From positions 313,080 through 377,079 of the forward strand of contig CBDCUI010000007.1 of NCBI GenBank assembly GCA_965222615.1: a stretch of 64,000 nt of DNA. Reading direction: 5' to 3'. The notes beneath the pieces are model-generated. The model was given only the letters and a program-made list of their open reading frames with translations, searched no databases and was not told where the DNA came from. The translations under genes were made by a program, and so were the position numbers. Shown here piece by piece: positions 4,244 to 55,043 of this stretch (position 1 is the stretch's first letter; every line of letters begins with the position of its first letter). The DNA comes from Gammaproteobacteria bacterium (lineage in GTDB: Bacteria; Pseudomonadota; Gammaproteobacteria; UBA4575).

Positions 4244-4251
4244 GTTGAATC

Positions 4252-5628: not shown

Positions 5629-5632
5629 TACC

Positions 5633-12300: not shown

Positions 12301-12318
12301 AAATATAGGGAAATAATT

Positions 12319-19382: not shown

Positions 19383-19481
19383 AGTTATTCGTACACCGCA
19401 AATAAGCGCCAAAATGAGGTGCTCGACGGACGTGTTTCGAATTTAATCATTAAAGTTTGAACTTATGAAAGGAGCACAGCT

Positions 19482-22306: not shown

Positions 22307-22321
22307 AAAGGAGTATTTCAA

Positions 22322-29633: not shown

Positions 29634-29670
29634 ATGTCACCCAAATCAGTCCCTATAATATTCATTTCTA

Positions 29671-29847
29671 TTAGAACCATCGTGTCGCTTGTTCTTCAAG
29701 CAACAATTCTTGAAATCTACGCCCTGATCCACATACACACAGATCATTACGGCCGAGCTTCTCGATAAGTTCTTTATTGCCATGAACGACTCTATTTCCT
29801 CGTTTAACGTTTGTTTCTGATGGATATCCCTTGCGACGTTTACTCAT
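29671..29847 (-). CDS. Small SEC-C motif protein (58 aa) immediately upstream of rtcB. Not in the ORF track because it is under 60 aa.
   Basis: Hand translation of the reverse strand gives [58 protein letters not shown]. NDLCxCGSGxxFKxCC is the SecA/YchJ-type zinc ribbon. Confidence 0.5.
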
Positions 29848-29909
29848 ACGCTCAAAAGGATTGGTCCTTATCTTTAAATTTACACATGTTGCACCTCCGT
29901 TTTATTGAG

Positions 29910-31352: not shown

Positions 31353-31426
31353 TTAAATTTAGCTAATTCCATTTAAATGACGCAGGCCCTCTAGTAATAA
31401 AGGACCTTTGTCAGTTTATTTTCACG

Positions 31427-38519: not shown

Positions 38520-38834
38520 TTACTTTATTGCGATAGCTTTAGCGATATCTTTTCTACTCGCACCCAATGCAATGAGTGATTTCATGTAGTGATCGAGGGA
38601 TACAGATGGATCACCGGCTTCTAGTTTTGCAATTCGTGATTGACTCGATTGTATGATTGTAGCCACTTTCGTTTGGCTTAATTTTTTACGTTTGCGTATT
38701 GCTTTAAATGTATTCGCCAAATTAAGTCTCATTTCGACAATCTCAGCCTCTTCCGGAGTCAGATCCAGAAATTCTTGGGCACTACCAAACTTCCAGCCTT
38801 TGGTTTCAAGTTTTTTGCGTTTCGCTTTATTCAC
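38520..38834 (-). CDS. higA: HigA-like antitoxin (XRE-family HTH)
   Basis: HTH ...KLSQTKVATIIQSSQSRIAKLEAG. 8-nt overlap with the upstream toxin gene. Confidence 0.65.
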   Translation of the reverse strand: MNKAKRKKLETKGWKFGSAQEFLDLTPEEAEIVEMRLNLANTFKAIRKRKKLSQTKVATIIQSSQSRIAKLEAGDPSVSLDHYMKSLIALGASRKDIAKAIAIK

Positions 38835-39171
38835 TGTCGTATTCCTTGATTCGCTGCTTACATATTTCTTTTACTGTTTTCGGTGTTCGTCTCGTTTTCT
38901 TTTCAAATACCTCGAGTATGACGATCGCATCTGTATCGATTCTATACATTATTCTCCATGTCAATGTTTCATCCACTATGCGTAACTCATGACAACGCCG
39001 ACCTATGATAGGCATCGGCCTTGAGTGGGGCAATGAGAGTTTTTCACCTTGTTGCAGCTTGCGCAGTAAAAAACCTGCTTCAATACGTGCACTTTGTGAA
39101 AAAGGTGGTGTTTTGATTTCACCACTTAGCCATGCTAGTAGCTTATCTCTCGGCGACATCTTTGACTCCAA
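38827..39171 (-). CDS. higB: HigB-like type II toxin (COG4679/Gp49-like RelE superfamily)
   Basis: ...RCHELRIVDETLTWRIMYRIDTDAIVILEVFEKKTRRTP matches the consensus of HigB/Gp49-like toxins. Confidence 0.65.
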   Translation of the reverse strand: MESKMSPRDKLLAWLSGEIKTPPFSQSARIEAGFLLRKLQQGEKLSLPHSRPMPIIGRRCHELRIVDETLTWRIMYRIDTDAIVILEVFEKKTRRTPKTVKEICKQRIKEYDSE

Positions 39172-39286: not shown

Positions 39287-39691
39287 TCATCTATTACTTA
39301 TATCATTAGCGCTATTAAGACCTATATTTATAAGCGAGCATACAATTTGTTCGTACAATTCCTGACCTTTATTTGTGATCTGTATAACTCTGGCTCGGCG
39401 ATCATTTTCAACAAAGTTATATTCCATTAAATGTAGATCTTCCAAGCAACGCATTGAACGGGTGAGTTGGGGTTTGTTTAGTACCGCTTCTTTTGCGATG
39501 ACCCCAGGCTGAACAAATTTTTGATACAAGTAATGTAGCACTTCAAAATCGATATGCGAGAGCTGGTACACTTTTATACTGTTTTTAATCTGTCTTTGAT
39601 ATGCCCTTACTTTTTTCAAGATTGCGAAATAGTCTTCTAGCTCCAATAGTTCTTCGTCAGCTATAAACTTATTCATAGTCTGTCTACCCAA
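39287..39691 (-). CDS. MarR family transcriptional regulator
   Basis: Winged helix ...LTRSMRCLEDLHLMEYNFVENDRRARVIQITNKGQELY. Confidence 0.7.
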   Translation of the reverse strand: MGRQTMNKFIADEELLELEDYFAILKKVRAYQRQIKNSIKVYQLSHIDFEVLHYLYQKFVQPGVIAKEAVLNKPQLTRSMRCLEDLHLMEYNFVENDRRARVIQITNKGQELYEQIVCSLINIGLNSANDISNR

Positions 39692-39802: not shown

Positions 39803-40075
39803 ATGGAGCGTATGACTTTAAAGAGGAAAATTCAGCAGGATTTTGGGAAAGCTCTGCTTAAACACAGAAGCAAAGCCAAGATGACATTTGAAACGCTTGC
39901 GGATAGAGCCAATTTGTCTATGCGCTATGTACAAGACTTAGAGGCTGGCAAGAAACTACCATCGATCATCACATTAATGAAACTATGCCATGCTTTGAAA
40001 ATTACACCTGATAAGTTACTGATGCCAATTTTTAGGCAAAATAAGAAACAAATTTTGGAAAAGGATAACGACTGA
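39803..40075 (+). CDS. XRE family HTH transcriptional regulator
   Basis: MTFETLADRANLSMRYVQDLEAGKKLPSIITLMKLCHALKITPDKLL. Confidence 0.7.
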   Translation: MERMTLKRKIQQDFGKALLKHRSKAKMTFETLADRANLSMRYVQDLEAGKKLPSIITLMKLCHALKITPDKLLMPIFRQNKKQILEKDND

Positions 40076-40252
40076 TAAGTAGCCTACAAAAACAAAATAT
40101 ATTCTATTTGAAATTTACAGGCTCAACGAAGTTTATACTCGAACTGACAGTTGTCGATGTGGATTCGTATGACAACCGCTTAAACTTTATCTTAAACAGA
40201 CAAAATAACATGGAATATGAGTCCACGTTTCATTTTTTAATTAATTGGCTGA

Positions 40253-40299
40253 TGGTGGCCAGGGGCGGAATCGAACCACCGACACGAGGATTTTCAGTA
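40253..40299 (-). repeat. attL: 47-nt direct repeat identical to the 3' end of tRNA-Phe (54968-55014), marking the left end of the island
   Basis: tggtggccaggggcggaatcgaaccaccgacacgaggattttcagt is identical at both positions. Only the right copy continues as a full tRNA. Confidence 0.8.
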
Positions 40300-40455
40300 C
40301 CCAAGGTTAAATAACTATCTGAATCCAGATTGTTCTAAATATATATCTACACTCACAATTATATGAAAATAGTTGTCTTTAATTATCTGTATAAATCCTA
40401 GTTATTCATCAATTTTCTTAGCACAAGTACACGAAAATTACACAATAATAATTAT

Positions 40456-43400
40456 CTATACTTGCTCAGCGCTTAATTCAAATTCTGAATTAATTAATTC
40501 AAGTATTTTTTCCAGAAACTGCCCTTCTTGTGGTGATATCGCAAGTCTTAGATATGGTGGTATATATTCTAAGAATTCTGACTTATTAATTGGGCGATAT
40601 TCTAATAATGCCTCAAGCATGGCTGGTCGGAGAAGACGTTTATTTTCAGGTGTGTCCGGTAGTGTTTTACGGATTACTTTTTGGTCAAATTCAATAAGCT
40701 TATCTTTCAATTGCACGCTTTCTGTTACAAATTCATTGCTCTCTTCTTGCCAAATTTCAATTTCATCAATAGTTTCTTCTTCTACAGATTCAGCCGGAAT
40801 TTCGCTAACAACTGGTAGATCAGTTTTTAGTTCATGCAGTTCTCGAATAATTGGTTGAATTTCAGCGCGTGGGTTCCTGAACCAGTCAGTGGACCAAATA
40901 CGTCGTATCCTCCACCCAAGTTGTTCCAATATATCCTGACGAATTCGATCACGATCTCGAACAGACTTTGCAGAGTGATAAGTTGCGCCATCACATTCAA
41001 TACCCATTAAGTATCTTCCAGGATTACCTGGATCTACAATTGCAATGTCGATAAAAAACCCTGCCACACCCACCTGAGGTACACACTCAAAACCTTCGTC
41101 TCGTAATGCATCGGCTACTGCTATTTCAAAATCACTGTCCGGGTCACGACCCGATTTTTCACTGCCTTTCTGAAGAATGCCCGTCTCACAAAAAGCAAGA
41201 AAATCCCTAAGTGCTTTTACTCCGAGTTTTGAACTAGTATCTACAACAATATCGTCAGAACCCATAGAACTAATCACAAGCATCCGCCTTCGAGATCGTG
41301 TAAAGAGTACATTCAACCTACGCCAACCAACGTTTGAATTAATTGGCCCAAATCGCTGAAAAACTTTTCCTCGCGGCTCTTGAGGCCCATATGTCATGGA
41401 TATAATTATTACATCACGTTCATCGCCTTGTACGTTCTCAAGATTCTTTACAAAAAGTGATTCTTGATTAGTTTGATCTTTCTCCAACCATTCTTGAAAA
41501 GAAATATCATCTTTTGCGAGACTTTCTATAGCACTTTCTATTTGGTCTCGTTGCTCCACATTCATAGCAACTACACCTATAGTTTCATCAGATCCTTTAC
41601 TAAAATGCTCACGAACTTTATTAGCTATAACTTTTGCCTCCTCTAGGTTACGTCGGTTTACAAAACATCCACGTCGGACACGTGTAAAACTTATGCCTAA
41701 TCGTTCTAAATCTTTGTGAGGAGAAGGGAACAGAATTAGATTACTGTCGTAGAAATAATGATTAGAAAAAGCAATAAGACTTTCATGCTTCGATCTGTAA
41801 TGCCATCTTAACCTTCGTGCAGAAAACATTGGGCGTGTAGCATCTAAAATGCTTTCAGATTCTTCTATTGCTGAAGGATCTTCATCATCATCTTCAATAA
41901 CTCGGTCAAAAAAACTTGTCGGCGGTAATTGCTTAGGGTCTCCAACAACAACTAGTTGTTTTCCACGAGCAATAGCCCCTAAAGCATCTTCGGGTTTGAT
42001 CTGTGATGCTTCATCCATCACAATCAAATCAAATTCTATTTGGCCAGGTGCTAAATATTGTGCTACTGACATTGGACCCATCATAAAACATGGCTTAAGT
42101 GCAGAAAGTGCTGTCCCTGCACGTCTGAGTAACTGTCTAATAGGTATATGTCTTTTTTGTTTTCCACATTCATGTTCGAGCAATGCAAACTCTGTGTAGT
42201 CACTAACTCGTCCACCAAAACTTCCTTGTGGTACATGGGCTTTATCTGCTTCCCATGCAATATTTTCACTTTGTAATTTCTTAAGACGATCATCGTATTC
42301 TTTAAACTGGCGTTGTAAAGACTCTTGCGCTCGTCCTGAAAATCGGCCAAGTTCTGGTTCTGCCCGTAGAATTTCACGTGCTAATAAATCGAAAATTCCT
42401 GCATAAAAAGCCACCTCCGCCATTGATGCTGAAATTTCCCCTTTTTCAATTGTTTCAGCCAATTTATTGAGACCAATTGGATTGAGTTGTTGACGTATTC
42501 GTACATAATCAAGCCAGTCCTGTAGCGTTACGCGTTGTTCTAGTGCAATGGAGTTGCGCTCTATCAACATTGCTACATCAATTCCACATGTGGACAACCA
42601 TTTGTTTTTATCTAATAACACTAACTCTTCAAATTTAGAGTTTGTTAGATTTAGTGTTTTTAGAATGTCTTTAATCTTTTTGCCTTGCTTACGTAATGAG
42701 TTAATCGTTGACGGTTCAGGTTTTTCATATATCCGATCTACAATAATTTGTTTTTTTATTTTATTTGTTATGCAATTGGCAATATCTAAAGTGTTTTTGG
42801 AAATGCTAAGTGCTGTATTGTTATTTGTATTCGCACCTATTTGTAAACCCAGGCGGCCTCTGAAAAATCGGTTATCATAATCGGCTTTTTCCCATCTACT
42901 GACGGTCCTATGCAGTGAATCAAGGGCCGTAATCTGGTTCATAAATTCTGTAAGCGATATGTTTTCATCTGTAATTAGTGACTTGCATTCTTTAATTGCT
43001 ACAGATATTTTATTTTTTAGTTTGACTAATAGATCACCGTCGCCCACTAGTAGAGTTTTAGAATCTTGCAGTGCCGTAACGGGAGCAAATAGAACTTTTA
43101 ATTGCTTGAGTTCACTTAATATATCGTCTAATTTTTTACAAATTCCTTGTTCTGAAAGAGACCGAATTGCTTTACTTAGATCAGGCGGTAAACCTATTGC
43201 TGCATCACCAAGCGCAATTTTTGGGCCGAATCCTACACCATATGTTTGGCGAACTTGTCTATACCATTCCCTAACTGTTTCTAACGAACCTATATCTGTA
43301 TCCAAACCTCTGGAATGGTCCCCCAAAAGCGATTTGTAAGTTGAATTGTTTTTAAGTTTATGAAGTTGATCTGAATATGTTACAGAGTCATTTAATGCTG

Positions 43401-45924
43401 CGATTAAATCTTTAAACTTGACATCCGTATTTGCTGACTGGCTAATTATTTGTTTTCTTGTCTTTCGCCAAGTAGGTTTAAACCATCGCAAAATACCACT
43501 AGATGATACAATTTGTTGATACTCTTTTTGAGTATCTTTATCTGGTATTCGTTTTACATCATAAACTTTTGACAATTTTTCTTGCTGTTGGTGTAAATTT
43601 TCAATTTCTTTACGAATTTTAGGAAGTGCATCATCAAGTTCATCATTATCAAAAAGTTCATTGCGATTCTTCCATTCTGAAGGGGGTAGTGACGATACAA
43701 GTTCGATAAATGTTTTTATTTCATGCAATCCAGACTCAGATAGATTTAAAAAATCTACTGCTGATTTGCCGATTTTAGTTTGAAGTTCTGAAACAAAGTC
43801 CTGAAGTTGTACTAATTGATCATGTACTCTCGTTAGTCGTTGTGTTGCTTGATCAATTTCACCTAATTTTACAGTACCATCTATAAATTGAACCAAGCTA
43901 CTTCCACCTTTTAAATATTTGCCAACTAATGAAAGGTTTTCAATCGCTTCAGTGCTAACCCTTTTAGACAGAATACGGTAAAGAGTTTGGATACTTTCAA
44001 ATTGTTTTATGTATTTTTTTACCTTGCTCAGCCTTTCTCCTTTAAGTAAATGCAATGTGTCGAGCAGTTCGTTACCTTTTAAATCTGGTAATTGTTCAAG
44101 TTCTAGTGCTATTTCTTCATAATCAGTAATAGTTTTTGGCCCTGACGATGGTTCGCAATTAAGTGTTTCTATTAGTTCAATCTCTAAATTTTTTAATTGA
44201 ATTAATGAACTCTGCCAGTCCTCAAGTGCAATAATTACCTTGTCAATGTCAAAGACTTGCAAGTCAATGTTTCTTACTCCATACCAAGGGTGCTGACTTA
44301 GCGAAATACCGTTACCTAACCGTTCTTCTACAGTTTTAAAAGCATCACTAAATGCTATGACCTGATCTCTTGCTCGTCGCTGCATATCTGCATCAAAGTT
44401 TTCACCTGAATATCCGTCTGGGTGCAAGTATTCTGGGTTGATCTTAAGAAGCTCTCTATATCGAGTTGCAGCCATGAATATTTCATGCTTCGTTTTTCCA
44501 GTTTCTTTCCATGTCTGATTAATGCGTTGAACATGCGTTTTTAGTGAATTTTTTAGATCTTCAAATCGACTTATATCTGCAGCAATTTCTGCCGGTTTTC
44601 GGTAATGGCCCTTTTTATTTATTCTTTCGGAAACATCATTGAGTAATTTTCTTTTTTGAGTTTTATGACTATGTAATTCAAGACAAAATTCACCAAGTCC
44701 CGCAGAATCGAGACGGCGCTTTACTATATTTAGTGCCGCAAGTTTTTCAGCCACAAATAAGACTTTTTTCCCCTGAATTAAAGCCGCACCAATTAGATTA
44801 GTAATAGTTTGTGACTTACCTGTTCCAGGTGGACCTTCTATAACTAAATTTTCACCTTCAACAACATCAATTAATGCACTATGTTGAGAACTGTCTGCAT
44901 CGTAAATTAAAGGATACTTTGTATGAATTTCTGGTAATTCATCAATTGAGTGTTCTTCACCAAAACCAAGATCTATATTTTTATTTTCTGGTAGCTCATC
45001 TACCCCATATCCTGTTAAAAAGCGGGATATTATTGGATGACTTGTGATTCCTTGTTCTTTCGGCCAACGAATAGGATCTAAATCTAGATACATAAGTAAC
45101 TTGCTAAAATTAAGTAATGAAAGAGTTATATACCTTCTTAACTTCCAACGTGGATGACTTTTACAAATTACAGATTCAACTTCTTCAAAGTAAGTTTCTG
45201 GTTGAGTGTTTTCATCGAGTTCAGGCAAAGCTAATGAAAAATCAATCCTCAATTTTTCGCGTAAAGATAAATTCGGGATGATATCTTCATCAGAATAACT
45301 AAGGCTATACTCGTAAGTCCCCAAGACAGCATTTAATTTACCTTTTTGTAACCGAACGGGTACTAAAAATAACGGCGCCAGTCGTGAGTTAGTACTATTG
45401 GGGCTATCGAACCATTCTAAGAATCCAAATACTAAATAGAGCATGTTTGCTCCTGTTTCCTCAATAGCAGTTCTTGAAGTTTGGTGTAATCGTCGTAACC
45501 GTGCTTCTAATTCATAAGGAAATAAAAGTGTTTGAATAGCCATATCAGTATGCTTGCTGACTTCATGGCTATTCTCTGGAACTGGTACATCAAATGATGT
45601 TTCTAGATTTAAATGTTTTGCCCATTCTTCTGCACTTGGGTCTTTTTTGAGACGGTGTTCTTCTCCTGTAACATCATCAATTTCAATATATCCTGCATCA
45701 ACAAGTTCCTGTAGAGTAGGTTCAGAAACAGGTATAAAACGCATTTCTTTATCCGCTAAAAGAGTCTCGACTAATTGGTTTGGTAATTCATCTATTACAC
45801 GTAAACATGAACTCTTAGTGTGGCGGAAATTGATAAGTCTATTGCGTCCCGTAAGATCAAGTAATCGATCTCGAAGATTCTTTAGTACATCAATCGCTGA
45901 ATTATGACTAACTACTTCACCCAT
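40456..45924 (-). CDS. 1822-aa DUF4011 / Upf1-like SF1 helicase (AAA_11/AAA_12) / Vsr-DUF559-like endonuclease / DUF3320 protein (HheA-like defence protein)
   Basis: Walker A VIEGPPGTGKSQT. Walker B and motif III IVMDEASQ...VVGDPKQLPP. Motif VI RLNVLFTRSRRRMLV. C-terminal DGATYHS...RDRDR...LGWRIRRIWSTDW is a Vsr/DUF559 fold. Terminal segment LRPAMLEALLEYRP resembles DUF3320. Confidence 0.75.
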   Translation of the reverse strand: MGEVVSHNSAIDVLKNLRDRLLDLTGRNRLINFRHTKSSCLRVIDELPNQLVETLLADKEMRFIPVSEPTLQELVDAGYIEIDDVTGEEHRLKKDPSAEEWAKHLNLETSFDVPVPENSHEVSKHTDMAIQTLLFPYELEARLRRLHQTSRTAIEETGANMLYLVFGFLEWFDSPNSTNSRLAPLFLVPVRLQKGKLNAVLGTYEYSLSYSDEDIIPNLSLREKLRIDFSLALPELDENTQPETYFEEVESVICKSHPRWKLRRYITLSLLNFSKLLMYLDLDPIRWPKEQGITSHPIISRFLTGYGVDELPENKNIDLGFGEEHSIDELPEIHTKYPLIYDADSSQHSALIDVVEGENLVIEGPPGTGKSQTITNLIGAALIQGKKVLFVAEKLAALNIVKRRLDSAGLGEFCLELHSHKTQKRKLLNDVSERINKKGHYRKPAEIAADISRFEDLKNSLKTHVQRINQTWKETGKTKHEIFMAATRYRELLKINPEYLHPDGYSGENFDADMQRRARDQVIAFSDAFKTVEERLGNGISLSQHPWYGVRNIDLQVFDIDKVIIALEDWQSSLIQLKNLEIELIETLNCEPSSGPKTITDYEEIALELEQLPDLKGNELLDTLHLLKGERLSKVKKYIKQFESIQTLYRILSKRVSTEAIENLSLVGKYLKGGSSLVQFIDGTVKLGEIDQATQRLTRVHDQLVQLQDFVSELQTKIGKSAVDFLNLSESGLHEIKTFIELVSSLPPSEWKNRNELFDNDELDDALPKIRKEIENLHQQQEKLSKVYDVKRIPDKDTQKEYQQIVSSSGILRWFKPTWRKTRKQIISQSANTDVKFKDLIAALNDSVTYSDQLHKLKNNSTYKSLLGDHSRGLDTDIGSLETVREWYRQVRQTYGVGFGPKIALGDAAIGLPPDLSKAIRSLSEQGICKKLDDILSELKQLKVLFAPVTALQDSKTLLVGDGDLLVKLKNKISVAIKECKSLITDENISLTEFMNQITALDSLHRTVSRWEKADYDNRFFRGRLGLQIGANTNNNTALSISKNTLDIANCITNKIKKQIIVDRIYEKPEPSTINSLRKQGKKIKDILKTLNLTNSKFEELVLLDKNKWLSTCGIDVAMLIERNSIALEQRVTLQDWLDYVRIRQQLNPIGLNKLAETIEKGEISASMAEVAFYAGIFDLLAREILRAEPELGRFSGRAQESLQRQFKEYDDRLKKLQSENIAWEADKAHVPQGSFGGRVSDYTEFALLEHECGKQKRHIPIRQLLRRAGTALSALKPCFMMGPMSVAQYLAPGQIEFDLIVMDEASQIKPEDALGAIARGKQLVVVGDPKQLPPTSFFDRVIEDDDEDPSAIEESESILDATRPMFSARRLRWHYRSKHESLIAFSNHYFYDSNLILFPSPHKDLERLGISFTRVRRGCFVNRRNLEEAKVIANKVREHFSKGSDETIGVVAMNVEQRDQIESAIESLAKDDISFQEWLEKDQTNQESLFVKNLENVQGDERDVIIISMTYGPQEPRGKVFQRFGPINSNVGWRRLNVLFTRSRRRMLVISSMGSDDIVVDTSSKLGVKALRDFLAFCETGILQKGSEKSGRDPDSDFEIAVADALRDEGFECVPQVGVAGFFIDIAIVDPGNPGRYLMGIECDGATYHSAKSVRDRDRIRQDILEQLGWRIRRIWSTDWFRNPRAEIQPIIRELHELKTDLPVVSEIPAESVEEETIDEIEIWQEESNEFVTESVQLKDKLIEFDQKVIRKTLPDTPENKRLLRPAMLEALLEYRPINKSEFLEYIPPYLRLAISPQEGQFLEKILELINSEFELSAEQV

Positions 45925-46380
45925 ATAAATTTGGCCTAATTTAGACTGGATGAATTAACATGTTTTTTTGAAGATGTTTAGAATCATCTTCACCCCCCAA
46001 CTGCTAGATAAATTATTATTTAGTTAATTTTCTCTCTATATTTTTCCTTTAAGTGTGAATTGGATCAGACATATTGACATTCCTCAATACACAGACATGA
46101 AAATACTTGGTTACTTTGTTTAATTTTTCGCCACTCCCACTGTTTTACCCTCTCTTTCTCTGGTAACTTCCAAATTCCTGCTCGATTTCCGTTCGCCACG
46201 TGTTCAAATGTATGTAAGCGGCTACTCATTGCATATTTTGGATGACATACTCGTAACCGCAACGAACAAGTACGCCATTGACCCATAACTCACCAAGATA
46301 TACATGTTTTGAGCTTATGATTAGAGAGCTTTTTTGTAAAATTTGCATAAGAAATAAGTCATTTACATTAGATATACACA

Positions 46381-49300
46381 ATGAAGATACGCAATAAGAA
46401 TATATCCCTTGCACCTACAGATCTTAGTAATTTTCATAGCTGCCATCATCTTACCTATCTTGATACAAAAAATGCTAAAGGTCTTATAGAACGCCCTAGT
46501 CGTTATGGACCACTATTAGATGAGCTTAAGGCACGCGGAATTGCTCATGAACAAAAATATTTCGAGCATTTAAAATCACAGGGACTATCGTTTGTTCAGA
46601 TTAACAATTCTGATTCAGATAATTTTTCCAAAGAAACTGCGCTTGAGGAAACAATAGCTGCAATGAGAAATGGTATCGACGTAATATATCAAGCAACTTT
46701 GTTGGACAATACTTGGCTGGGACGGGCAGATTTTCTCCACAAAGTTGAGTCATCTAGTAAATTTGGGAACTGGTCATACGAAGTCGTCGATACTAAGCTC
46801 GCACGTGATACCAAGGCAGGTACTATTCTTCAACTATGTGTTTACTCTTATTTACTTTCCAAGCTTCAGGGAACTCGTCCAGAATTCATGTGCGTTGTTA
46901 CACCGGGGAGTGATTTTATCCCATTGAAGTATCGTGTGGATGATTATGGCGCGTATTTTCGTTTCGCTGAAAATAACATTACCGATTTTATAGAATCTGA
47001 AGAGGATACTTATCCAGAGCTTGTTCCCCACTGTGACCTTTGTACATGGTGGAGTGAATGCGAAAAACGGCGTCGAGGTGATGACCATCTTTGTTACGTA
47101 GCTGGGATTAGGGGTTCTCAAATAAAAAGTCTTCGCTCATTAGGTATAGAACGGCTTGCAGATTTAGCGCATCTAGAAAATATTCCTGAAACGCCTCATG
47201 GATCCAGAGAAGCACTTACACGTGTTCGTGACCAAGCTAAAGTTCAATTTATTGGAAGAGATAAGAGTGGTTCATATTATGAATTTATCGAACCTTTCAA
47301 TAGTGAACATGGACTTGCGATGTTACCGGAACCAACACAAGATGATATTTTCTTGGACTTTGAGGGAAGCCATTTTGTTGAACAAGGAGTTCAGGAATAT
47401 CTAACAGGATTTTTAACTCTCGATCCTGATGGAAATCAAAATTATACGGCGCTATGGGCACGAACTCTTGAAGAGGAATGTCGGTCATTTGAAGAGTTTA
47501 TCGATATTGCGATTGACGCATGTATGCGTAATCAAAATGCACATATTTATCATTTTGCTTCCTATGAACCAACGGCACTAAAAAGATTAATGGGTCGATT
47601 TGCAACTAGAGGGGAAGAGCTAGATGATTTATTAAGAAGAGAAGCATTTGTTGATTTATATACCATTGTCAAACGTACTCTAATAGCAAGCGTTGAACGC
47701 TACTCAATTAAAGATCTAGAGCCCTTCTTTGGTTATTCACGTAGTCAAGATTTAGCAGAAGCAACAATGAGCCGGCGAATTGTTGAGAATATTATCGAAT
47801 CTGGTGATATCGATGATGCTAATCAAAAACATTTTCAAATTGTTGAGAGCTACAACCGTGAGGATTGCGAATCTGCGAAACGTCTTAGGGATTGGCTTGA
47901 GAAGTTGCGTGAAGAAGTGATTTCTAATGGGCACGTACTGCCAAGACCAGATATTAAAACTGGTGATGCTTCGGAAGAGATAAGTGAACTTGATAGTGAA
48001 TTGCAACGACTTCGAGATGGACTTTTGCAAGAAGTTCCAATGGAACCTGAAGACCGTTCTGATGAGCAGCAGGCACGTTTCACTCTCGCGCATATGATGG
48101 AATTTCATCGCCGAGAAGATAAGGCTGCTTGGTGGGAATATTTTCGAGTACTTGATTTAGACCAAAGTGATTACGTGGACGAACGTCGCGCCTTAATAAA
48201 TCTAAAGTTTGAAAAAGTTGTTGATGCAAAGCGCGCACCGCTGCAGCGCTACAGTTTTGTTCCGCAAGAGCTTGATGTACGCAGAAATGATGATGTTTAC
48301 GATAGTGAGGGTAATAAGGTCGGAAAAGTAACTGATGTTAATTATTCAGCGAGAACAATTGATATTAAGAAAATGATTGCCACAGCGGATGAGCACCCTA
48401 ATAGTGTGGTTTTTCATAACCAAGTATCATCAAAAGCACTTCGAGAGTCGCTGATGCGATTTGGTGAATCTGTCTTAGAGCAAGGTTTCAACGGTCAGTT
48501 ACCATATTCGTCTGGTTTAGAACTATTACTTTGTAACTCTTCACCATTGGCTGGGGATAACGGTTCTTTGCAACAAGTCAATGAAAGTACATTAGATGCG
48601 GCGTGTAGATTGGCACTAAATTTAGATCATCATGTACTTGCTATTCAGGGTCCGCCAGGAACCGGCAAAACTTACACTGGAGCACATATTATTTGTGTGC
48701 TGATACAGCAGGGTCTGAAAGTGGGGGTTACAGCTGTTAGTCATAAAGTCATCGAAAATTTGCTTGAAGGTGCAATGGAAGAAGCACATAAACAAGGAAT
48801 TAATCTTCAAGGCGTGCATCGCCAAGACGGAGAGTATCAAGGTAATTGGAATATTGAACGCAAAAAAGATTACAGAACTATAAGACGACAGCTCGACGAT
48901 GGAAGTATAGACGTTCTTGGTGCAACTGCATGGTGCTGGGTAAGAGAAGAATTTGAACAAAGTGTTGATGTTCTAATCGTAGATGAGGCTGGACAAATGT
49001 CATTGAGTAATGTTTTGGCTGCATCGCCGGGAAGTAAAGGTTTAGTGTTGCTAGGTGACCCACAACAACTTGAGCAACCATTGCAGAGTAGTCATCCAGA
49101 GGGAAGTGAAGTATCTGCTCTTTATTACTTGCTTGACGGAGAAGATACAATGCCCGCGGATAAAGGCTTATTTCTAAATGAAACTTTCCGACTTCATCCA
49201 TCCATTTGCCAATTTACATCCGAAGTTTATTATGAGAAGCGCTTGATTGCGCAGCCTGATCTCATTAATCAGGAAATTATCTTTTTGTTAGATAAAACAA

Positions 49301-49818
49301 GTAGGATTTCAGGGTCGGGTCTACGTTATGTGCCTGTAGTACATACAGGAAATCAGGCTCGATCGCTTGAAGAAGTCGCAGTTATTTCCGAAATTGTTAA
49401 GGACCTCCTTGAAGGAGGTTCATGGAAGGATAAGGAGCACAATGTTACAACTTTGACCGAACAAGATATCCTTATTGTTGCACCATATAACTCTCAGGTA
49501 GCAGCATTGATTGAAGCACTTCCTATGTTGCAAAATCGAATTGGAACTGTAGATCGTTTTCAAGGACAGGAAGCAGCTCTTGTATTATATTCAATGACAT
49601 CCTCAAGCGCAGAAGATGCTCCACGAGGAATGGAGTTTCTTTATGATCGGCACCGATTCAATGTTGCGACTTCTCGTGCTAGAGCTTTATGTATATTGGT
49701 CGGTAGTCCTGCTCTATTTGATCCAGACTGCAAAACACCACGCCAAATGCGTAGGGTTAACGGGTTCTGTCGTTACATGGAGATGACTAAAAAAATTAGT
49801 ATGTGTGACAGTTTTTGA
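46381..49818 (+). CDS. 1145-aa Dna2-like nuclease-helicase: Cas4/RecB-like PD-(D/E)xK Fe-S nuclease (TM0106-type), RNaseH-like domain and SF1B Upf1/DNA2-like helicase
   Basis: N-terminal Cys ligands (FHSCHH...CDLCTWWSEC, a CX2CX5C cluster) and the D-x-K motif YEVVDTKLARDTK. Central DIFLDFEG... RNaseH-like segment. Helicase motifs GPPGTGKT, VLIVDEAGQ, GDPQQL, TVDRFQGQE and NVATSRAR. Confidence 0.75.
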   Translation: MKIRNKNISLAPTDLSNFHSCHHLTYLDTKNAKGLIERPSRYGPLLDELKARGIAHEQKYFEHLKSQGLSFVQINNSDSDNFSKETALEETIAAMRNGIDVIYQATLLDNTWLGRADFLHKVESSSKFGNWSYEVVDTKLARDTKAGTILQLCVYSYLLSKLQGTRPEFMCVVTPGSDFIPLKYRVDDYGAYFRFAENNITDFIESEEDTYPELVPHCDLCTWWSECEKRRRGDDHLCYVAGIRGSQIKSLRSLGIERLADLAHLENIPETPHGSREALTRVRDQAKVQFIGRDKSGSYYEFIEPFNSEHGLAMLPEPTQDDIFLDFEGSHFVEQGVQEYLTGFLTLDPDGNQNYTALWARTLEEECRSFEEFIDIAIDACMRNQNAHIYHFASYEPTALKRLMGRFATRGEELDDLLRREAFVDLYTIVKRTLIASVERYSIKDLEPFFGYSRSQDLAEATMSRRIVENIIESGDIDDANQKHFQIVESYNREDCESAKRLRDWLEKLREEVISNGHVLPRPDIKTGDASEEISELDSELQRLRDGLLQEVPMEPEDRSDEQQARFTLAHMMEFHRREDKAAWWEYFRVLDLDQSDYVDERRALINLKFEKVVDAKRAPLQRYSFVPQELDVRRNDDVYDSEGNKVGKVTDVNYSARTIDIKKMIATADEHPNSVVFHNQVSSKALRESLMRFGESVLEQGFNGQLPYSSGLELLLCNSSPLAGDNGSLQQVNESTLDAACRLALNLDHHVLAIQGPPGTGKTYTGAHIICVLIQQGLKVGVTAVSHKVIENLLEGAMEEAHKQGINLQGVHRQDGEYQGNWNIERKKDYRTIRRQLDDGSIDVLGATAWCWVREEFEQSVDVLIVDEAGQMSLSNVLAASPGSKGLVLLGDPQQLEQPLQSSHPEGSEVSALYYLLDGEDTMPADKGLFLNETFRLHPSICQFTSEVYYEKRLIAQPDLINQEIIFLLDKTSRISGSGLRYVPVVHTGNQARSLEEVAVISEIVKDLLEGGSWKDKEHNVTTLTEQDILIVAPYNSQVAALIEALPMLQNRIGTVDRFQGQEAALVLYSMTSSSAEDAPRGMEFLYDRHRFNVATSRARALCILVGSPALFDPDCKTPRQMRRVNGFCRYMEMTKKISMCDSF

Positions 49819-50044
49819 TTATTTTGTTAATTGGACAATGTTTTTAGACACTAAGTTATTAATCATCGCCCCTCGAACAAGCCCATGATAGTTATGTACT
49901 TGGAAGGACCCCCTAAAAATAATCCTTTAAAATAATGAATCGATAATTGTCATTGTTAAACATTGCATTCAGGATTTAGCAAAAATACATAATTCTTTTT
50001 TCATACGCAGTGTATGAGTCCACGGTTCATCTCAAATCTAATAA

Positions 50045-50287
50045 TTAGTCGTAATCATCATCGTAATAACCGAATAAGTCACATCCATTATCAAACATGC
50101 CAGTACAGTGGTTATATATACCGGCTAGATTATTCGCATTGGTACCTCTAATATAATCACGATAATCATCATCACTCATATAAACATTGCGAAAACATGG
50201 TTCGCCCATACCGTCAAATGGATCTGATGTATCAAGCTTAAAAAGCTCTGAAATAAAATCGAAAAGAAAGATTACGATTGTGCGCAT
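50045..50287 (-). CDS. Small hypothetical protein with a hydrophobic N-terminus and Asp/Tyr-rich C-terminus
   Basis: MRTIVIFLFDFIS... then ...DDDYRDY...YYDDDYD. Confidence 0.25.
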   Translation of the reverse strand: MRTIVIFLFDFISELFKLDTSDPFDGMGEPCFRNVYMSDDDYRDYIRGTNANNLAGIYNHCTGMFDNGCDLFGYYDDDYD

Positions 50288-50476
50288 ATAGCAGTGCTGA
50301 ATTTATATTTCTAGATACAATTGTACACCTACTAAAGAAGACCGCGACGGCGCCCCGCCGCGGCTTCTCCCGTTGTCAGCCTTACGGCTGGCCCGTGCCC
50401 TAGGGAATTTTATTTAAACACCAATAATTTTATTTGAGCATATTTAAACACTGCGTATTAGTGGATCGATTAAACC

Positions 50477-51343
50477 TTACCTACCAAGATAAACACTTAT
50501 TATTTGGATGCGTTCGTGGCCTAGCTCTCGACTGATCTGCTGTCTTGCTAATTGGTCTTTTATTAATTGTTTGAGGTTCAACTCTTTAGCTTTTGGCCCA
50601 CCCGCGGCTGGAGACTTCCAGCTTGTTAGCTCAAAATATCGATTTTGTGCATATCGGTGCCTCAACCCATGTACCTTACTAAGCCCTATATATAAGGTAT
50701 GTCGCTCATATGACTTAAGTTGCTGGATATATGATTTGTTTGGAGGTATCAAGGAACCCTTTCCAACCAATTGATGAGAAATGGCAATTGCCATTTTTTG
50801 AGATTCGGTTCGTATAGGAATTGCCCTTTCTTTTCCTCCCTTTGTCCAGCTACTTTTTAGAACGAGTTGATTCTTACGATCGGCCCAATGAGGTTGAATC
50901 TTTATAGCTTCTTCTCTCCTGAGACCAAATTCCCGTTGCAACAAAAGACTAGCCCGCACCCATGGGTCTTTAACTAAATTTAGTTGCTCGTAACTTACAT
51001 TGATTGCTTTTGATTCATTGTTTAGATAGTTTCGGTTCGGGATACTATAGAAAGAATTATCCTTTGCAATTACAGAACCACGATTAACTTTTTCTGCCCA
51101 CCATCTCAGTGCGGCCATCCTATTTTTGATGGTACCTGTACTGATATCTTGTTCTTGCCAGATTTGAATTAGTCTATATACATGTCTTCCTTTTAGTTGT
51201 TGGGCATGTAGTTTTTTATAACCCGCTTCATGGAGCTGGTTGGCAATCAGATTTAAGATCTTTATTCGATTGGCCTGGGTGGCATAACTTCCATCGCGGT
51301 TTCTCCTACAAAGTTGTTTAAGTTCATAATTAAGATCCCTCAT
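50477..51343 (-). CDS. Tyrosine recombinase/integrase-family protein (catalytic domain only)
   Basis: R (FGLRREEA), K (KGGKER), HxxR (HGLRHRYA) and terminal Y (ISVYLGR). Confidence 0.6.
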   Translation of the reverse strand: MRDLNYELKQLCRRNRDGSYATQANRIKILNLIANQLHEAGYKKLHAQQLKGRHVYRLIQIWQEQDISTGTIKNRMAALRWWAEKVNRGSVIAKDNSFYSIPNRNYLNNESKAINVSYEQLNLVKDPWVRASLLLQREFGLRREEAIKIQPHWADRKNQLVLKSSWTKGGKERAIPIRTESQKMAIAISHQLVGKGSLIPPNKSYIQQLKSYERHTLYIGLSKVHGLRHRYAQNRYFELTSWKSPAAGGPKAKELNLKQLIKDQLARQQISRELGHERIQIISVYLGR

Positions 51344-51758
51344 GTATTTAATTGGTAAGTGTTAATGACTCGTCTAGTTGTGCCGTAGCACAAAAGATTT
51401 TTAAAGAGTCGAATTACGGATCATGTCTCTGAATGAAACTTCCATTGCATCATCCTGTTGGCGATTACAATGGAATATGGGTCTTTTTAGTTTGATAGCA
51501 CCTCCTTAGTTAAGTTAAATAGTTAGTGAATAGTGGTTCGCGATTTAGATGGATCACGAACCTTCAGGGCGTTCGTTTATTGTCTGAACAAGACTAGGGT
51601 TCTACTTTGTATAGTAGATATAGGTGCTTGGTTTTGAGTCTAAGCAGGACTCCCATTTAGTTCTGGGCGACAATGAATTCGTTGTGCACTAATAGTTGCA
51701 GATCACCACACCGTCACTCTCGATTTGGCTTTGTAACCCGCACTAGGTATGGGTTGGT

Positions 51759-51797
51759 GCGCATTGTCACTACCGCATTCGCGTAGTGACAATGCGC
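51759..51797. repeat. Perfect 15-bp inverted repeat with a 9-nt loop
   Basis: gcgcattgtcactac-cgcattcgc-gtagtgacaatgcgc, immediately 3' of the minus-strand gene that ends at 51820. Confidence 0.6.
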
Positions 51798-51819
51798 TTG
51801 GCGCAAGTAAATAGAAATG

Positions 51820-52122
51820 CTATTTCAATATTTCAAACTTCATTAGAGCAGTTGGGCCATGCATTTCTACATTAATAGCATTAATTTCTCTAAGTTGTTT
51901 TACATAGGTTCGACATTGTCGATCTGTACGACTTAGTACCTTGCATACTTCAGCAAGGTCAAAACACCCTATTCCATACTGATTAGCACATGCACGAAGA
52001 TATCCATAGGTAAGCTTTGCGCCATGACAAATATCGCGGCGAATTGCGATAGGCAGAGGAATCACCATACACTCATTTCCATTTTTATTACAGGTGCAAT
52101 AGGTTGAGTTAATTTTAGTCAT
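51820..52122 (-). CDS. Hypothetical Cys-rich small protein (island cargo, possible regulator)
   Basis: 100 aa with several Cys residues. No confident motif. Confidence 0.3.
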   Translation of the reverse strand: MTKINSTYCTCNKNGNECMVIPLPIAIRRDICHGAKLTYGYLRACANQYGIGCFDLAEVCKVLSRTDRQCRTYVKQLREINAINVEMHGPTALMKFEILK

Positions 52123-52393
52123 TATTAACCTCCTTTAAGAATGTTTGATATTCATCGTCATTTAATGCAAATACTGCAGCCACATGCGCAGCAGGATAAA
52201 ACACACGACGACCAAAATATCGTTTACTTTTTAGAAGATTTTTTATCTTTAGGCTTTTACTTGTTCGCAAAACATTCCCAAGACTTTCCGGTGATGTATG
52301 TACGATTTCAGCGAGATGCTGCCTTGAAATTGGATCCCCATATCTTTTTACATATGAGTCCAACATTTGTTTATATAACTCGTTTCCAAACAT
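52115..52393 (-). CDS. Hypothetical small protein, putative DNA-binding regulator of the island
   Basis: 92 aa. 8-nt overlap with the downstream gene suggests an operon. Confidence 0.3.
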   Translation of the reverse strand: MFGNELYKQMLDSYVKRYGDPISRQHLAEIVHTSPESLGNVLRTSKSLKIKNLLKSKRYFGRRVFYPAAHVAAVFALNDDEYQTFLKEVNND

Positions 52394-52750
52394 ATTTTCT
52401 CCAAAGTTAGAAAGCTTCTACGCAAATAAAATAACGGAAGATAATTTCGCGCAGAAGCTCTAAAACACGAGAATTTCTCCCAAAATATAAGTTGAGAACA
52501 TTTATAAGTTTGTATAGGAGGAACCACGAAGTTGGTTAACTAGAATGCGCAACTTACTTGCACACTCAGGTAAGGACCTGTTCGTGACTCAAAGTGGAGT
52601 CAGTACAAAGAAGTATTACTTCAAGGCACAGTTGTGTATAAGTAAAGCATCTCTATGGAAGAGATAACTAGGGATGTGGCAGATTTCCCTAGCGGTTCTT
52701 ATGATTATATGATTTGCGTATTTCGTCAATAGTTTGGAAAAAAACTTCCG

Positions 52751-53320
52751 CTAGTTATCATTTTGAGTTGATGTCGTTGGAGGTTTATATTTTTCGGGTC
52801 TTGTTGTTATTAAATATTTAGTCTTCGTATCTTCTATTTTAAATGGCATTCTACAATTTTCTAAATGTGGAATTTTAATAGATCCTGTTTTATGAGCATA
52901 TTGTCCTAATTCCTTACTATGTCTAAACCCAGGTGGACTGATAAGCTTAATTTTTCGTTTTTTACTTAATCCATTGATTACTTGTAGCGCAGGTGCAAAG
53001 TCACTGTCTTGACTAACTATGAATGCTTCATCGAAATTATCGTTATAAGCTTCTCTAATCATAGTAACTGCAATATTTACATCGGTTTGCTTTTCTTCAT
53101 GTGAAATCCATGTAGTTCCGCATGTCTTACAGCCACTTGATTTTTCTTTGAATGACCCCAATATTACTTTTACACCACATGCTTCTTGTGCTCTTATAAA
53201 TTTTTTATGCCTTTTGGCTGGGTTAATTAGCCATTCAGCTATAGCGGTAAAATAGTAGACATCAACAAGTTTATGGTTAGCAGGATTTGTAAAGGTTTCC
53301 ATTAACCTCCACATATCCAC
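52751..53320 (-). CDS. NYN/LabA-like domain protein (PIN-like RNase fold)
   Basis: ...NIAVTMIREAYNDNFDEAFIVSQDSDFAPALQV... matches the NYN domain acidic-residue pattern. Confidence 0.6.
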   Translation of the reverse strand: MDMWRLMETFTNPANHKLVDVYYFTAIAEWLINPAKRHKKFIRAQEACGVKVILGSFKEKSSGCKTCGTTWISHEEKQTDVNIAVTMIREAYNDNFDEAFIVSQDSDFAPALQVINGLSKKRKIKLISPPGFRHSKELGQYAHKTGSIKIPHLENCRMPFKIEDTKTKYLITTRPEKYKPPTTSTQNDN

Positions 53321-53595
53321 CCATTTTAGATCATTGCGATCTAAATTATTGATTGCATGTATAAATTAAAACTATCTATAAAGGCTATAACCCTAGTTGG
53401 ATGAGTGTTGACTACCAAGATAGAGCTCCTTTATAGTGATAGTGATTTTAATCCCGCATGCTAGAGATAGTGTGCGCCTACCGCGGGGCATGCCCCCGCG
53501 GTTCTATTTTCAAATCTGAACTCTTAATCCCCACTATTGTTTTCTTTTGTAGCAGTAAGAGTTTTAGATGTTTGAAAAAAGTCTTCAAATAAAAG

Positions 53596-53829
53596 CTAAG
53601 TTGTATTTGACAGATCATCATCTATAAATTTCCCCTCACGATTATATTGTTTGTATATTTTACGTAGGATACTTGGTCGTTTCTCAGCAATCTTCTTAAT
53701 AGCAGCCGTTAAAATATCTTTTAACTCTTCTTCTGTAAGTGTTTTGTTAGGATCTCCTCCGCCTATCTCAATCAAGGTTTTTTCTAAATTAGTTGTAAGT
53801 TTAGTTTTATTCCCAAGTTGAATTGCCAT
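53596..53829 (-). CDS. Small hypothetical protein downstream of the integrase (possible excisionase/accessory)
   Basis: 77 aa, 10 nt downstream of the integrase stop. No motif. Confidence 0.25.
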   Translation of the reverse strand: MAIQLGNKTKLTTNLEKTLIEIGGGDPNKTLTEEELKDILTAAIKKIAEKRPSILRKIYKQYNREGKFIDDDLSNTT

Positions 53830-53838
53830 AACAGTTAA

Positions 53839-54882
53839 TCACTGAATATTAAGTTGATCTAACTTCGAAACTAAATCTTCAGCTCGAAGGTGTGTATATC
53901 GTTTCAACATCTGCATGCTTTTATGTCCGCTAATGGCAGCGACTTCTTGATCCCCTAATCCGGCTTCAACTAAACGGCTAATTGCTTCATGCCTGAGGTC
54001 ATGAAATCTTAAGTCATGTAATTTAGCTTTTGCTATAGCTTTTCTCCATGCGGGACGATATTGATATGGGCGACGTTTCCCATCTTTACCTGGCTCACCA
54101 TAAAAAACTAAATTTGTATCAAACGGTCTAATTTTTTCGCTTAAAACTTCATTTAAAACAGATACTGCTACTTTATTAAGTGGCACTGTTCTTGAATTAC
54201 CATTCTTTGTATCAGACAACCTAATAACCCTTTTCTTTAAATCAATTTGGTTACGCTCAAGGCTTTGAATTTCACCTGCGCGCATTCCAGTTGATAATGC
54301 TAAACGAGTCATCCAACCAAGTTTTGGATTTCTTTTGTTATTACACACTTCTAGTAGTTTCTTTTCCTCATCAACTGACAGTCGCCGATCTCTTCCTTTA
54401 CTTGGTGAAGGTTTTCTAATGTTAAGAACTGGATTAAATGAAACTCCCAATCCCCATTCTTGTATTGCAACAGTATATAGGTGTGAAAGCAGTGCCAACT
54501 CTAGTCGTACTGTATCTGGTGATTTTCTGAGTTTTAATCGATTATCACGGTATTCAGCAATTTTTTGTGCAGTTAATGATGCAAGAGAATAATTTCCCAA
54601 CTTTTCAATAAGTCTATCTGCTCTTCTTTTTTCTGCTGTTTGCGTAGTTTGCTTTTTTGTAACAGTTACTTCTAAAAGATATCGTTGCAATGCATTCTGT
54701 AAAGTTGTTCGTTCTGCAGGCGCTCGATTTAAATAAACACCTCTCACCATTTCATCTTCGATACTTCGAGACCAGTCTTCAGCATCGCGCTTTGTACGAA
54801 ATGTTTTTGAAGCAGTAGGCCAGCCTTGTTTTCTAACCAAAGCTTTCCACTTATTAGATGAAGTTTTTACGAAGGTTGCCAA
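53839..54882 (-). CDS. int: Tyrosine-type site-specific integrase
   Basis: ...RLSVDEEKKL..., ...HDLRHEAISRLVEAGLGD..., ...GHKSMQMLKRYTHL. Lies adjacent to tRNA-Phe. Confidence 0.85.
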   Translation of the reverse strand: MATFVKTSSNKWKALVRKQGWPTASKTFRTKRDAEDWSRSIEDEMVRGVYLNRAPAERTTLQNALQRYLLEVTVTKKQTTQTAEKRRADRLIEKLGNYSLASLTAQKIAEYRDNRLKLRKSPDTVRLELALLSHLYTVAIQEWGLGVSFNPVLNIRKPSPSKGRDRRLSVDEEKKLLEVCNNKRNPKLGWMTRLALSTGMRAGEIQSLERNQIDLKKRVIRLSDTKNGNSRTVPLNKVAVSVLNEVLSEKIRPFDTNLVFYGEPGKDGKRRPYQYRPAWRKAIAKAKLHDLRFHDLRHEAISRLVEAGLGDQEVAAISGHKSMQMLKRYTHLRAEDLVSKLDQLNIQ

Positions 54883-54967
54883 CCTGGTACAATCCCAAAA
54901 TTTACTGTACCCCTATTGTACCTGAGTCCTGATGAATGGTTAAGCGATTTATAAGTTATTGATTTAA

Positions 54968-55043
54968 TGGTGGCCAGGGGCGGAATCGAACCACCGACAC
55001 GAGGATTTTCAGTCCACTGCTCTACCAACTGAGCTACCTGGCC
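54968..55043 (-). tRNA. tRNA-Phe(GAA), integration target (attR)
   Basis: The reverse complement reads GGCCAGGTAGCTCAGTTGGTAGAGCAGTGGACTGAAAATCCTCGTGTCGGTGGTTCGATTCCGCCCCTGGCCACCA, which closely matches E. coli tRNA-Phe. Confidence 0.9.

Follow-up and report, generated by a model that had tools for sequence, protein, structure and literature searches.

The window analysed here comprises 64,000 nucleotides (nt) of contig CBDCUI010000007.1, from a gammaproteobacterium of the lineage UBA4575. Positions 40299–54966 of the window very probably form a site-specifically integrated genomic island, bounded by a 47-nt direct repeat of the 3′ part of a tRNA-Phe gene, which belongs to a widespread family of small plasmid-like elements that integrate at tRNA genes. 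This assignment is carried by the repeat and the tRNA gene, by the families to which the island genes belong, and by features shared with related loci: linkage of the integrase gene to a tRNA gene, the geometry of the repeats, and a short sequence doublet beside the integrase gene. The sites and the gene at the two ends are the following.

40252–40298, no strand: distal copy of the 47-nt repeat, which is attR for the 14.7-kb island and the middle one of the three att copies described below; not a tRNA gene (exact match, Rfam)
40427–40443, plus strand: weak inverted doublet-like GTACAC-N5-TTACAC, about 130–145 nt from the distal repeat in the P arm of the 14.7-kb island (read from the sequence)
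53839–54882, minus strand: tyrosine integrase Int, 347 amino acids (aa), TTG start (Pfam, PHROGs, homologue alignment)
54906–54922, minus strand: GGTACAATAGGGGTACA, a doublet in the P′ arm that is a candidate arm-type site for Int binding, 23 nt before the int start (family-pattern scan)
54967–55013, no strand: tRNA-proximal copy of the 47-nt repeat, core of attL (exact-match search)
54968–55043, minus strand: tRNA-Phe(GAA), the integration target, whose 3′ 46 nt would now be supplied by the island (attL) (ARAGORN, Rfam)

Probable integration at tRNA-Phe

The exact maximal direct repeat, ATGGTGGCC...TTTTCAGT, is 47 nt long, and when the two copies were aligned with their flanks the identity stopped on both sides of it. 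The initial annotation had recognized this 47-nt repeat, which is real, but its coordinates were one base too high and the string that it gave contained only 46 letters. That string occurs exactly twice on the plus strand, at 40253–40298 and 54968–55013, where shuffled sequences lead one to expect no occurrence. The tRNA-Phe gene was found intact by ARAGORN and was matched by Rfam RF00005 with 68 bits at 54971–55043. No tRNA was found by Rfam at the left copy, and the earlier observation that only the right copy is part of a full tRNA-Phe(GAA) gene is thus upheld. Comparison of the repeat coordinates with the position of the tRNA in ARAGORN and Rfam places the repeat at tRNA positions 31–76, from the anticodon loop to the CCA end, plus one base.

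The gene that had been called a tyrosine integrase adjoining the tRNA is indeed one. Pfam assigns it PF00589 at 2e-34, over profile positions 2–170 of 172, and PF24624 (Int_N), and it matches phrog_1 in PHROGs at 1e-66. The translation contains MRAGE, HDLRH and GHKSMQMLKRY, in which the R...HxxR...H...Y motifs are visible. It begins 85 nt past the tRNA end, a gap equal to that in the Phe subgroup of its homologues, where values run from 84 to 100 nt. The likely start is the TTG at 54882, since the alignment with homologues of 346–347 aa begins at residue 1. The protein in the public record (P0001, 333 aa) begins 14 codons after this homologue-supported TTG (window 54841–54882) and is probably too short.

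Comparison was made with 83 loci carrying Int homologues of 61–67% identity, most of which stop before a distal repeat could show. A tRNA gene on the same strand ends 84–129 nt before int in 61 of them, and is Met/Ile2(CAT) in 44, Phe in 13, Thr in 3 and Lys in 1. Two loci display the repeat with the same geometry as in the window. In locus L117 a 46-nt repeat of tRNA positions 32–77 lies 10.5 kb away, and in L065 a repeat starting at tRNA position 28/31 lies 11.2 kb away and is truncated by the end of the locus. The pattern GGYACA-N5-GGTACA is present once, on the int strand and 18–39 nt before int, in 58 of the 83 related loci, and is absent from all 58 unrelated loci that were scanned. A scan of the 64-kb window for this doublet gave only two matches of at least 11/12, the one beside int and a second at 18704–18720. 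Judged by sequence, the GGTACA doublet is a putative pair of arm-type integrase-binding sites. The initial annotation had proposed an attL/attR element of about 14.8 kb at tRNA-Phe; the measured length is about 14.7 kb, and the tRNA linkage, spacing, repeat geometry and doublet of the integrase homologues agree with that proposal.

In the mechanism proposed here, a circular attP form of the island would have recombined with the chromosomal tRNA-Phe gene. In its attP, a 47-nt copy of the tRNA-Phe 3′ part would have stood between a P arm on one side and a P′ arm, bearing the GGTACA doublet, on the other. The tyrosine integrase of the island would catalyze the reaction and exchange strands at the anticodon loop or next to it. 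The copy brought by the island would now complete the tRNA at attL, and the displaced original 3′ part would lie at the far end as attR. The island would be the tRNA-proximal unit of a tandem accretion, in which an older integrase-less unit, 18573–40251, ends at a third, partial att copy accompanied by a doublet.

To the right of tRNA-Phe lie yggX, mutY, a gene for an SRPBCC protein, asmA and moaC. A MutY scan of species-representative genomes gave 45 loci, the closest being those of uncultured Gammaproteobacteria/Thiotrichales metagenome-assembled genomes (66–70% identity), in which the order mutY-yggX-tRNA-Phe is kept. Gene order agrees with that of the closest genomes from 63.8 kb as far as tRNA-Phe and no further; none of the genes of window 1–54967 is found in them within 10 kb after tRNA-Phe. 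Each relative carries different genes there, none of which is an integrase, and for that reason the idea of an intact recognizable element after tRNA-Phe in each relative was dropped. At 50–70 nt after tRNA-Phe, relatives have a AATCAATAAGTTA-like sequence followed by a different direct doublet (TCCACCA twice in L001, L003, L004 and L005; GGTGCTAC twice in L002 and L045). These patterns resemble P′ arms with no integrase following, and may be relics of other integrated elements. The island proteins are singletons at 90% identity clustering, exact-protein look-ups of YggX, Int and P0001 gave no match, and a megablast search of phages and plasmids matched only the tRNA itself, so that no copy of the island was found among them.

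Backbone and cargo of the island

The part of the island from 50.0 to 54.9 kb is a single coherent, recurrent, plasmid-like backbone. Besides int it contains the following features.

50045–50287, minus strand: 80-aa open reading frame (ORF) (ORF call)
50477–51343, minus strand: second gene of the tyrosine-recombinase family (Integrase_1/Phage_int_SAM_2), plasmid type (Pfam, homologues)
51759–51797, no strand: conserved inverted repeat (hairpin) of 39 nt, GCGCATTGTCACTAC-N9-GTAGTGACAATGCGC, upstream of the second recombinase gene (sequence conservation, fold)
51820–52122, minus strand: 100-aa ORF with a weak HTH_36 match (PF13730, E 0.011; Pfam)
52115–52393, minus strand: 92-aa conserved partner of Int (homologues in related loci; weak helix-turn-helix (HTH))
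53596–53829, minus strand: 77-aa ORF directly after int, possibly a recombinase accessory protein (plasmid homologue)

The second integrase-family gene of the initial annotation is confirmed by Pfam as Integrase_1/Phage_int_SAM_2 (PF12834 at 2.6e-19, PF12835 at 3.4e-11). Homologues are found on the same strand, 2–4 kb after int, in L053 and L078 (56% identity) and in L065 (32%). In L053 and L078 the order of an HTH_36-like gene, the GTCACTAC hairpin and the recombinase gene is also kept. Since the gene recurs in related islands, with this gene-hairpin order kept in two of them, its sequence relationships identify it as a backbone gene of the island and not as evidence of a second insertion. 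Plasmids also carry homologues, in 223 records, many of which are of small plasmids. In pSIO1 and in a Pleionea plasmid, a gene for a type IV (T4) coupling protein follows the Integrase_1-type gene by at most 225 nt (L129, 5995–8680; L130, 1934–4819), and by analogy this neighbor hints at a role of Integrase_1-type proteins in mobilization rather than integration. The second recombinase probably acts in multimer resolution or mobilization. Searches of 40299–54966 with Pfam and NCBIfam gave no relaxase, coupling-protein or type IV secretion system genes, by which an integrative and conjugative or a mobilizable element would be recognized.

The palindrome GTCACTAC...GTAGTGAC occupies the same place in L053 and L078, and two inverted copies are present on the Pleionea plasmid. 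As DNA, the 101-nt stretch around it (51720–51820) folds with −23.8 kcal/mol (z −5.3). The hairpin is a candidate cis site, namely an origin of transfer (oriT), a replication origin or a recombination site.

Among the small genes, the 92-aa gene is shared with 39 related loci, where its homologues always occupy the int strand and lie 148–8147 nt past the int stop codon. For the protein, which is probably an excisionase or a regulator, Pfam offers nothing beyond weak HTH matches. Where the window has the 100-aa ORF, related islands carry a 250–294-aa HTH_36 or TrfA-type replication-like protein; region 51343–51820 was searched for a frameshifted remnant of a longer replication gene and none was found. 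The 77-aa ORF is 43% identical (E 4e-15) to a 77-aa ORF directly after an Integrase_1-like gene on the Pseudolysobacter plasmid NZ_CP035703. Pfam and PHROG searches with the 77-aa ORF and with the 80-aa ORF gave no family match.

The cargo is of a defence type. The list given in the initial annotation, two nuclease-helicases and an NYN protein, matches the identifications by Pfam, PADLOC and NCBIfam.

40456–45924, minus strand: Hhe anti-phage protein (predicted), 1822 aa, with DUF4011, a superfamily 1 (SF1) helicase and an MTES_1575/Vsr-like endonuclease (NCBIfam, PADLOC, Pfam)
46381–49818, plus strand: 1145-aa protein with a Cas4-like/TM0106 RecB-like nuclease, RNase_H_2 and an SF1 (Upf1/IGHMBP2-like) helicase (TIGR03491, Pfam)
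52751–53320, minus strand: NYN-domain protein of the candidate defence family HEC-09 (PADLOC HEC-09, 4.5e-37; PF01936, 8e-12)

The 1822-aa protein matches the NCBIfam equivalog NF042953 (Hhe_antiphage) over its full length, residues 14–1811, with 2509 bits against a cut-off of 2000, and the PADLOC Hhe model with 1782 bits. By sequence it is Hhe, and its function in defence is predicted. The 1145-aa protein matches TIGR03491 at 1e-69 and contains PF13482, AAA_11 and AAA_12 (NCBIfam, Pfam). It has 3153 homologues, the best of which are 60–70% identical. All three neighborhoods of such homologues that were examined are of a defence type (a contig of the JGI metagenome 3300047160, L132 and L134), and on the JGI contig the nuclease-helicase gene is likewise divergently paired with an Hhe-like gene containing AAA_11/12 and MTES_1575. 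The TM0106-type nuclease-helicase is a candidate defence gene, and with the Hhe-like gene it may form a two-gene module. HEC-09 gave no protection in its single published test (bioRxiv 10.1101/2024.01.29.577857).

In related islands, too, defence-type genes lie between backbone and distal repeat, and encode an FRG protein and an SDH protease in L065, a kinase-ORC/CDC6-like protein and a DruA-like protein in L117. In L065 the order of backbone, variable cargo (between the second recombinase and the distal repeat) and repeat is that of the island in the window.

A putative outer unit and alternative readings of the locus

A search with the anticodon-side half of the 47-nt repeat revealed a third att copy, and with it a possible second unit outside the island.

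18549–18572, no strand: third, partial att copy (search and alignments)
18704–18720, minus strand: the family doublet again, as GGCACAATAGAGGTACA, 131 nt inward of the third att copy (doublet scan)
18573–40251, no strand: putative older integrase-less island ('island 2'), with boundaries inferred from the att copies

The third copy, AACCAC-GACACGAGGATTTTCAGT, has 18 nt exact and 6 nt more after a 1-nt gap (0.00 expected). It shares its strand and its terminal ...CAGT boundary with the 47-nt repeat. The doublet near it is identical at 15 of 17 positions to the doublet beside int. Since a comparable pair, spaced by 6 nt, precedes the distal repeat of L117 by about 125 nt, the position and orientation of this doublet are those of a P arm. 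The first 15 nt or so outside the middle repeat resemble the start of the family P′ arm. These features suggest, with moderate confidence, that the segment 18573–40251 is a unit of this kind, of greater age, whose integrase has been lost, and that accretion runs outward. Int might excise the 14.7-kb island alone or up to about 36.5 kb.

The outer unit contains a CusCBA-like efflux operon, an AraC regulator, RtcB, PcfJ-like and SPFH proteins, an array of 25–26 tRNA genes with an HNH endonuclease gene and a GOLLD RNA, HigBA, and HTH regulators. The tRNA array (32897–37207, minus strand, with 28437–33760) has 25 tRNA genes according to ARAGORN and a 26th at 34274–34367 according to Rfam, and covers 19 amino acids. 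The HNH gene (33194–33760) is inside it, and the RtcB, PcfJ-like and SPFH genes lie alongside. The tRNA-Phe of the array and that of the chromosome have no more than about 70% identity, and the array has no match among phage records. The GOLLD RNA, in the middle of the array on this gammaproteobacterial chromosome, is full length (35914–36401, minus strand; Rfam RF02032, 155.8 bits with a gathering threshold of 150, E 1.6e-42), and tRNA-Leu(tag), 36256–36332, is embedded in it. A 61-nt repeat with a GCGAGTAATA...CCACTCGC hairpin occurs three times before some of the array tRNAs (33834–33894, 34057–34117 and 35702–35762; 75–79% identity to the reference copy). A 480-nt non-coding stretch, 37207–37690, without an Rfam match, separates the array from the first HTH gene, and it contains one arm of a 32-nt inverted repeat (33781–33812 and 37294–37325) that brackets most of the array.

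At the outer end, 18104–19481 is an AT-rich non-coding region of 1.4 kb (G+C 0.31) that contains the third att copy; about 18960–19380 appeared to encode a putative small Cys-rich protein. The metal efflux operon of the CusC/CusB(-CusF)/CusA type follows at 19482–25477. Farther out, a ten-gene polysaccharide cluster occupies 13–13773 on the plus strand, with glycosyltransferases, a heparinase II/III-like protein, an ABC exporter, APH-like kinases and an alginate-export porin.

It is unlikely that the true unit of Int is the whole of 18573–54966, about 36.4 kb, with the middle repeat at 40252–40298 as an internal or secondary att copy. In its favor, the canonical doublet stands beside the third copy and not beside the middle one, and to the left of the middle copy there is neither an integrase nor a P′-arm doublet. 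The middle repeat, however, is a perfect 47 nt compared with about 24 nt for the outer copy, the resemblance of the adjoining 15 nt or so to the start of a P′ arm is what would be expected at the head of an older unit, and the related islands with both ends known measure 10–11 kb.

A 17-nt motif, TATGAGTCCACGKTTCA, is present in three copies on the plus strand, with 0.06 expected by chance.

38459–38475, plus strand: motif copy M1, outside the island (motif search)
40216–40232, plus strand: motif copy M2, 19 nt outside the distal repeat (motif search)
50013–50029, plus strand: motif copy M3, inside the island (motif search)

All three sit at module junctions. The stretch common to the copies reaches 27 nt at most, extending from the motif in one direction. 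Between M1 and M2 are a HigB(Gp49)/HTH antitoxin pair (38520–39171, minus strand), a SarA/Rot-like gene (39287–39691) and a Cro/C1-type HTH gene (39803–40075). In tRNA orientation the motif core, GTGGACTCATA, differs at a single position from the anticodon arm of the tRNA(CAT) genes, which most Int relatives target. The motif was absent from the related loci and the three plasmids searched, and its 7 matches in IMG/VR are about the chance level by a rough estimate of the size of that collection. It was considered as the site of the second recombinase and rejected, since the conserved element that accompanies that gene is the GTCACTAC hairpin instead. An integron was likewise rejected: the recombinase is of the Integrase_1 type and not integron-type, and TIGR02249 is matched weakly, and only by the other integrase, Int. 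The motif copies share no conserved hairpin, and the related loci and plasmids have no equivalent repeat. There is a slim chance that the motif (TGAAMCGTGGACTCATA in tRNA orientation), which mimics the tRNA(CAT) anticodon arm, is a recombination site where enzymes of the Int family or Integrase_1 type swap defence and toxin-antitoxin modules between tandem islands. Exchange at such sites would, if it occurs, amount to a cassette-like layer of shuffling above ordinary tRNA integration.

The initial annotation had taken the second recombinase and a 17-nt repeat at 50012 as signs that the island is a composite of two tandem insertions. The repeat is real, at 50013–50029, but two further copies lie outside the island. 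On the composite reading, an int unit (50030–54966) and a helicase-nuclease unit (40299–50012) would have been joined near 50012. The motif at 50013 is not a chance occurrence, it coincides with the boundary between backbone and cargo, the other copies also stand at module junctions, and the core is as close to a tRNA anticodon arm as described. However, no decayed tRNA fragment was found to follow either the copy at 38459 or that at 50013, in particular no tRNA-Phe fragment after the latter; two of the three copies are outside the 47-nt repeat; no second Int-type integrase or remnant of one is present in the window; related islands, each a single unit, have the second recombinase as a recurrent part of the backbone; and L065 has backbone, cargo and distal repeat in the same order. 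A composite is thus quite unlikely. It is very improbable that the element is a prophage or a phage satellite similar to P4 or to the phage-inducible chromosomal islands (PICIs). A tRNA-side integrase and small regulator-like ORFs are typical of satellites too, and the tRNA array and GOLLD RNA of the neighboring unit are features often linked to phages. Yet Pfam, PHROGs and NCBIfam detected no capsid, terminase, tail, primase or AlpA-type genes, the PHROGs matches are restricted to the integrases and one family of unknown function, and there is no nucleotide match to 50,697 phage records except the tRNA. The chance that no mobile element is involved at all, and that the repeat is a fortuitous match, a local duplication of a tRNA pseudogene or an assembly artefact, is negligible: nothing was found in its favor, no match is expected by chance, the repeat stops precisely at the boundary in the anticodon loop that related elements use, the tRNA-side integrase has the family spacing and doublet, and 47 nt is too short to cause a misjoin of the 822,884-bp contig.

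Several observations weigh against the picture of a single island added to an older unit. The third att copy matches over about 24 nt only, its acceptor and T-arm part showing no significant similarity, and no remnant of an integrase was found beside the middle copy or elsewhere in the window; because of this short match and the missing remnant we infer the accretion history rather than count it as observed. The picture does not account for the 17-nt motif. The P arm of the island (40299–40460) has only the weak inverted doublet, which scored below 10/12 in the scan and is only suggestive. Because the replication-like gene of the relatives is reduced to 100 aa here, the element may be partly decayed. 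Composition does not discriminate, G+C being 0.377 in the island, 0.390 in the older unit, 0.427 in the right flank and 0.368 at the far left. Finally, the closest genomes, at about 70% MutY identity, have unrelated genes after tRNA-Phe and offer no exact empty site, and no conspecific genome was found by exact-protein look-ups or protein clustering.

Relation to known elements

The classical tRNA-linked genomic islands with a tyrosine integrase include the pheV/pheU islands of Enterobacteriaceae, which have P4-type integrases. The island described here resembles them in its tRNA-Phe target, the integrase at the tRNA 3′ end, the repeat of the tRNA 3′ part at the far end, and the accessory cargo. 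It differs in that Int displays only PF24624 and PF00589, without the N-terminal domain of the P4 type, and in its plasmid-like backbone, with an Integrase_1-type recombinase and, in relatives, an HTH_36/TrfA-type gene. The repeat is also long in comparison, at 47 nt, because exchange would take place at the anticodon loop.

Integrative elements that carry defence genes include the Vibrio phage-defence elements and the P4-like defence hotspots. Pipolins are a further group of this kind (PMC11551731). The island is similar to these elements in being small and repeat-flanked with a variable defence bay, the cargo of which is swapped among related islands. In contrast, it lacks PolB, P4 and PICI genes and has another integrase and backbone, and its role in defence is predicted. 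Compared with the Hhe single-gene system (NF042953; 'Hhe' in PADLOC and DefenseFinder), the protein encoded here is a full-length equivalog with DUF4011, an SF1 helicase and a Vsr-like nuclease; the difference is that this Hhe is cargo, divergently paired with a TM0106-type nuclease-helicase.

Accretion with an integrase-less cis-mobilizable element (CIME) is represented by ICESt1/ICESt3 of Streptococcus thermophilus. The locus in the window is like it in having three direct att copies, an integrase solely in the tRNA-proximal unit, and an outer unit without an Int-type recombinase. It differs in that the outer att copy is about 24 nt, the history is reconstructed, and there is no conjugation module.

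The island is a clear but ordinary tRNA island of the textbook type, and the weight of the finding is modest. It supplies clean ends for an element with defence genes from a gammaproteobacterial lineage that is uncultured, and it nominates the TM0106-type nuclease-helicase paired with Hhe for a role in defence. The presence of the tRNA array and GOLLD RNA in the same accretion zone bears on how such arrays move. The family of Int is large, with more than 7000 integrase homologues, and little described. The island helps to define it by a shared arm-site doublet, the 92-aa partner gene and sometimes an Integrase_1 recombinase with its hairpin, around which defence cargo is swapped.

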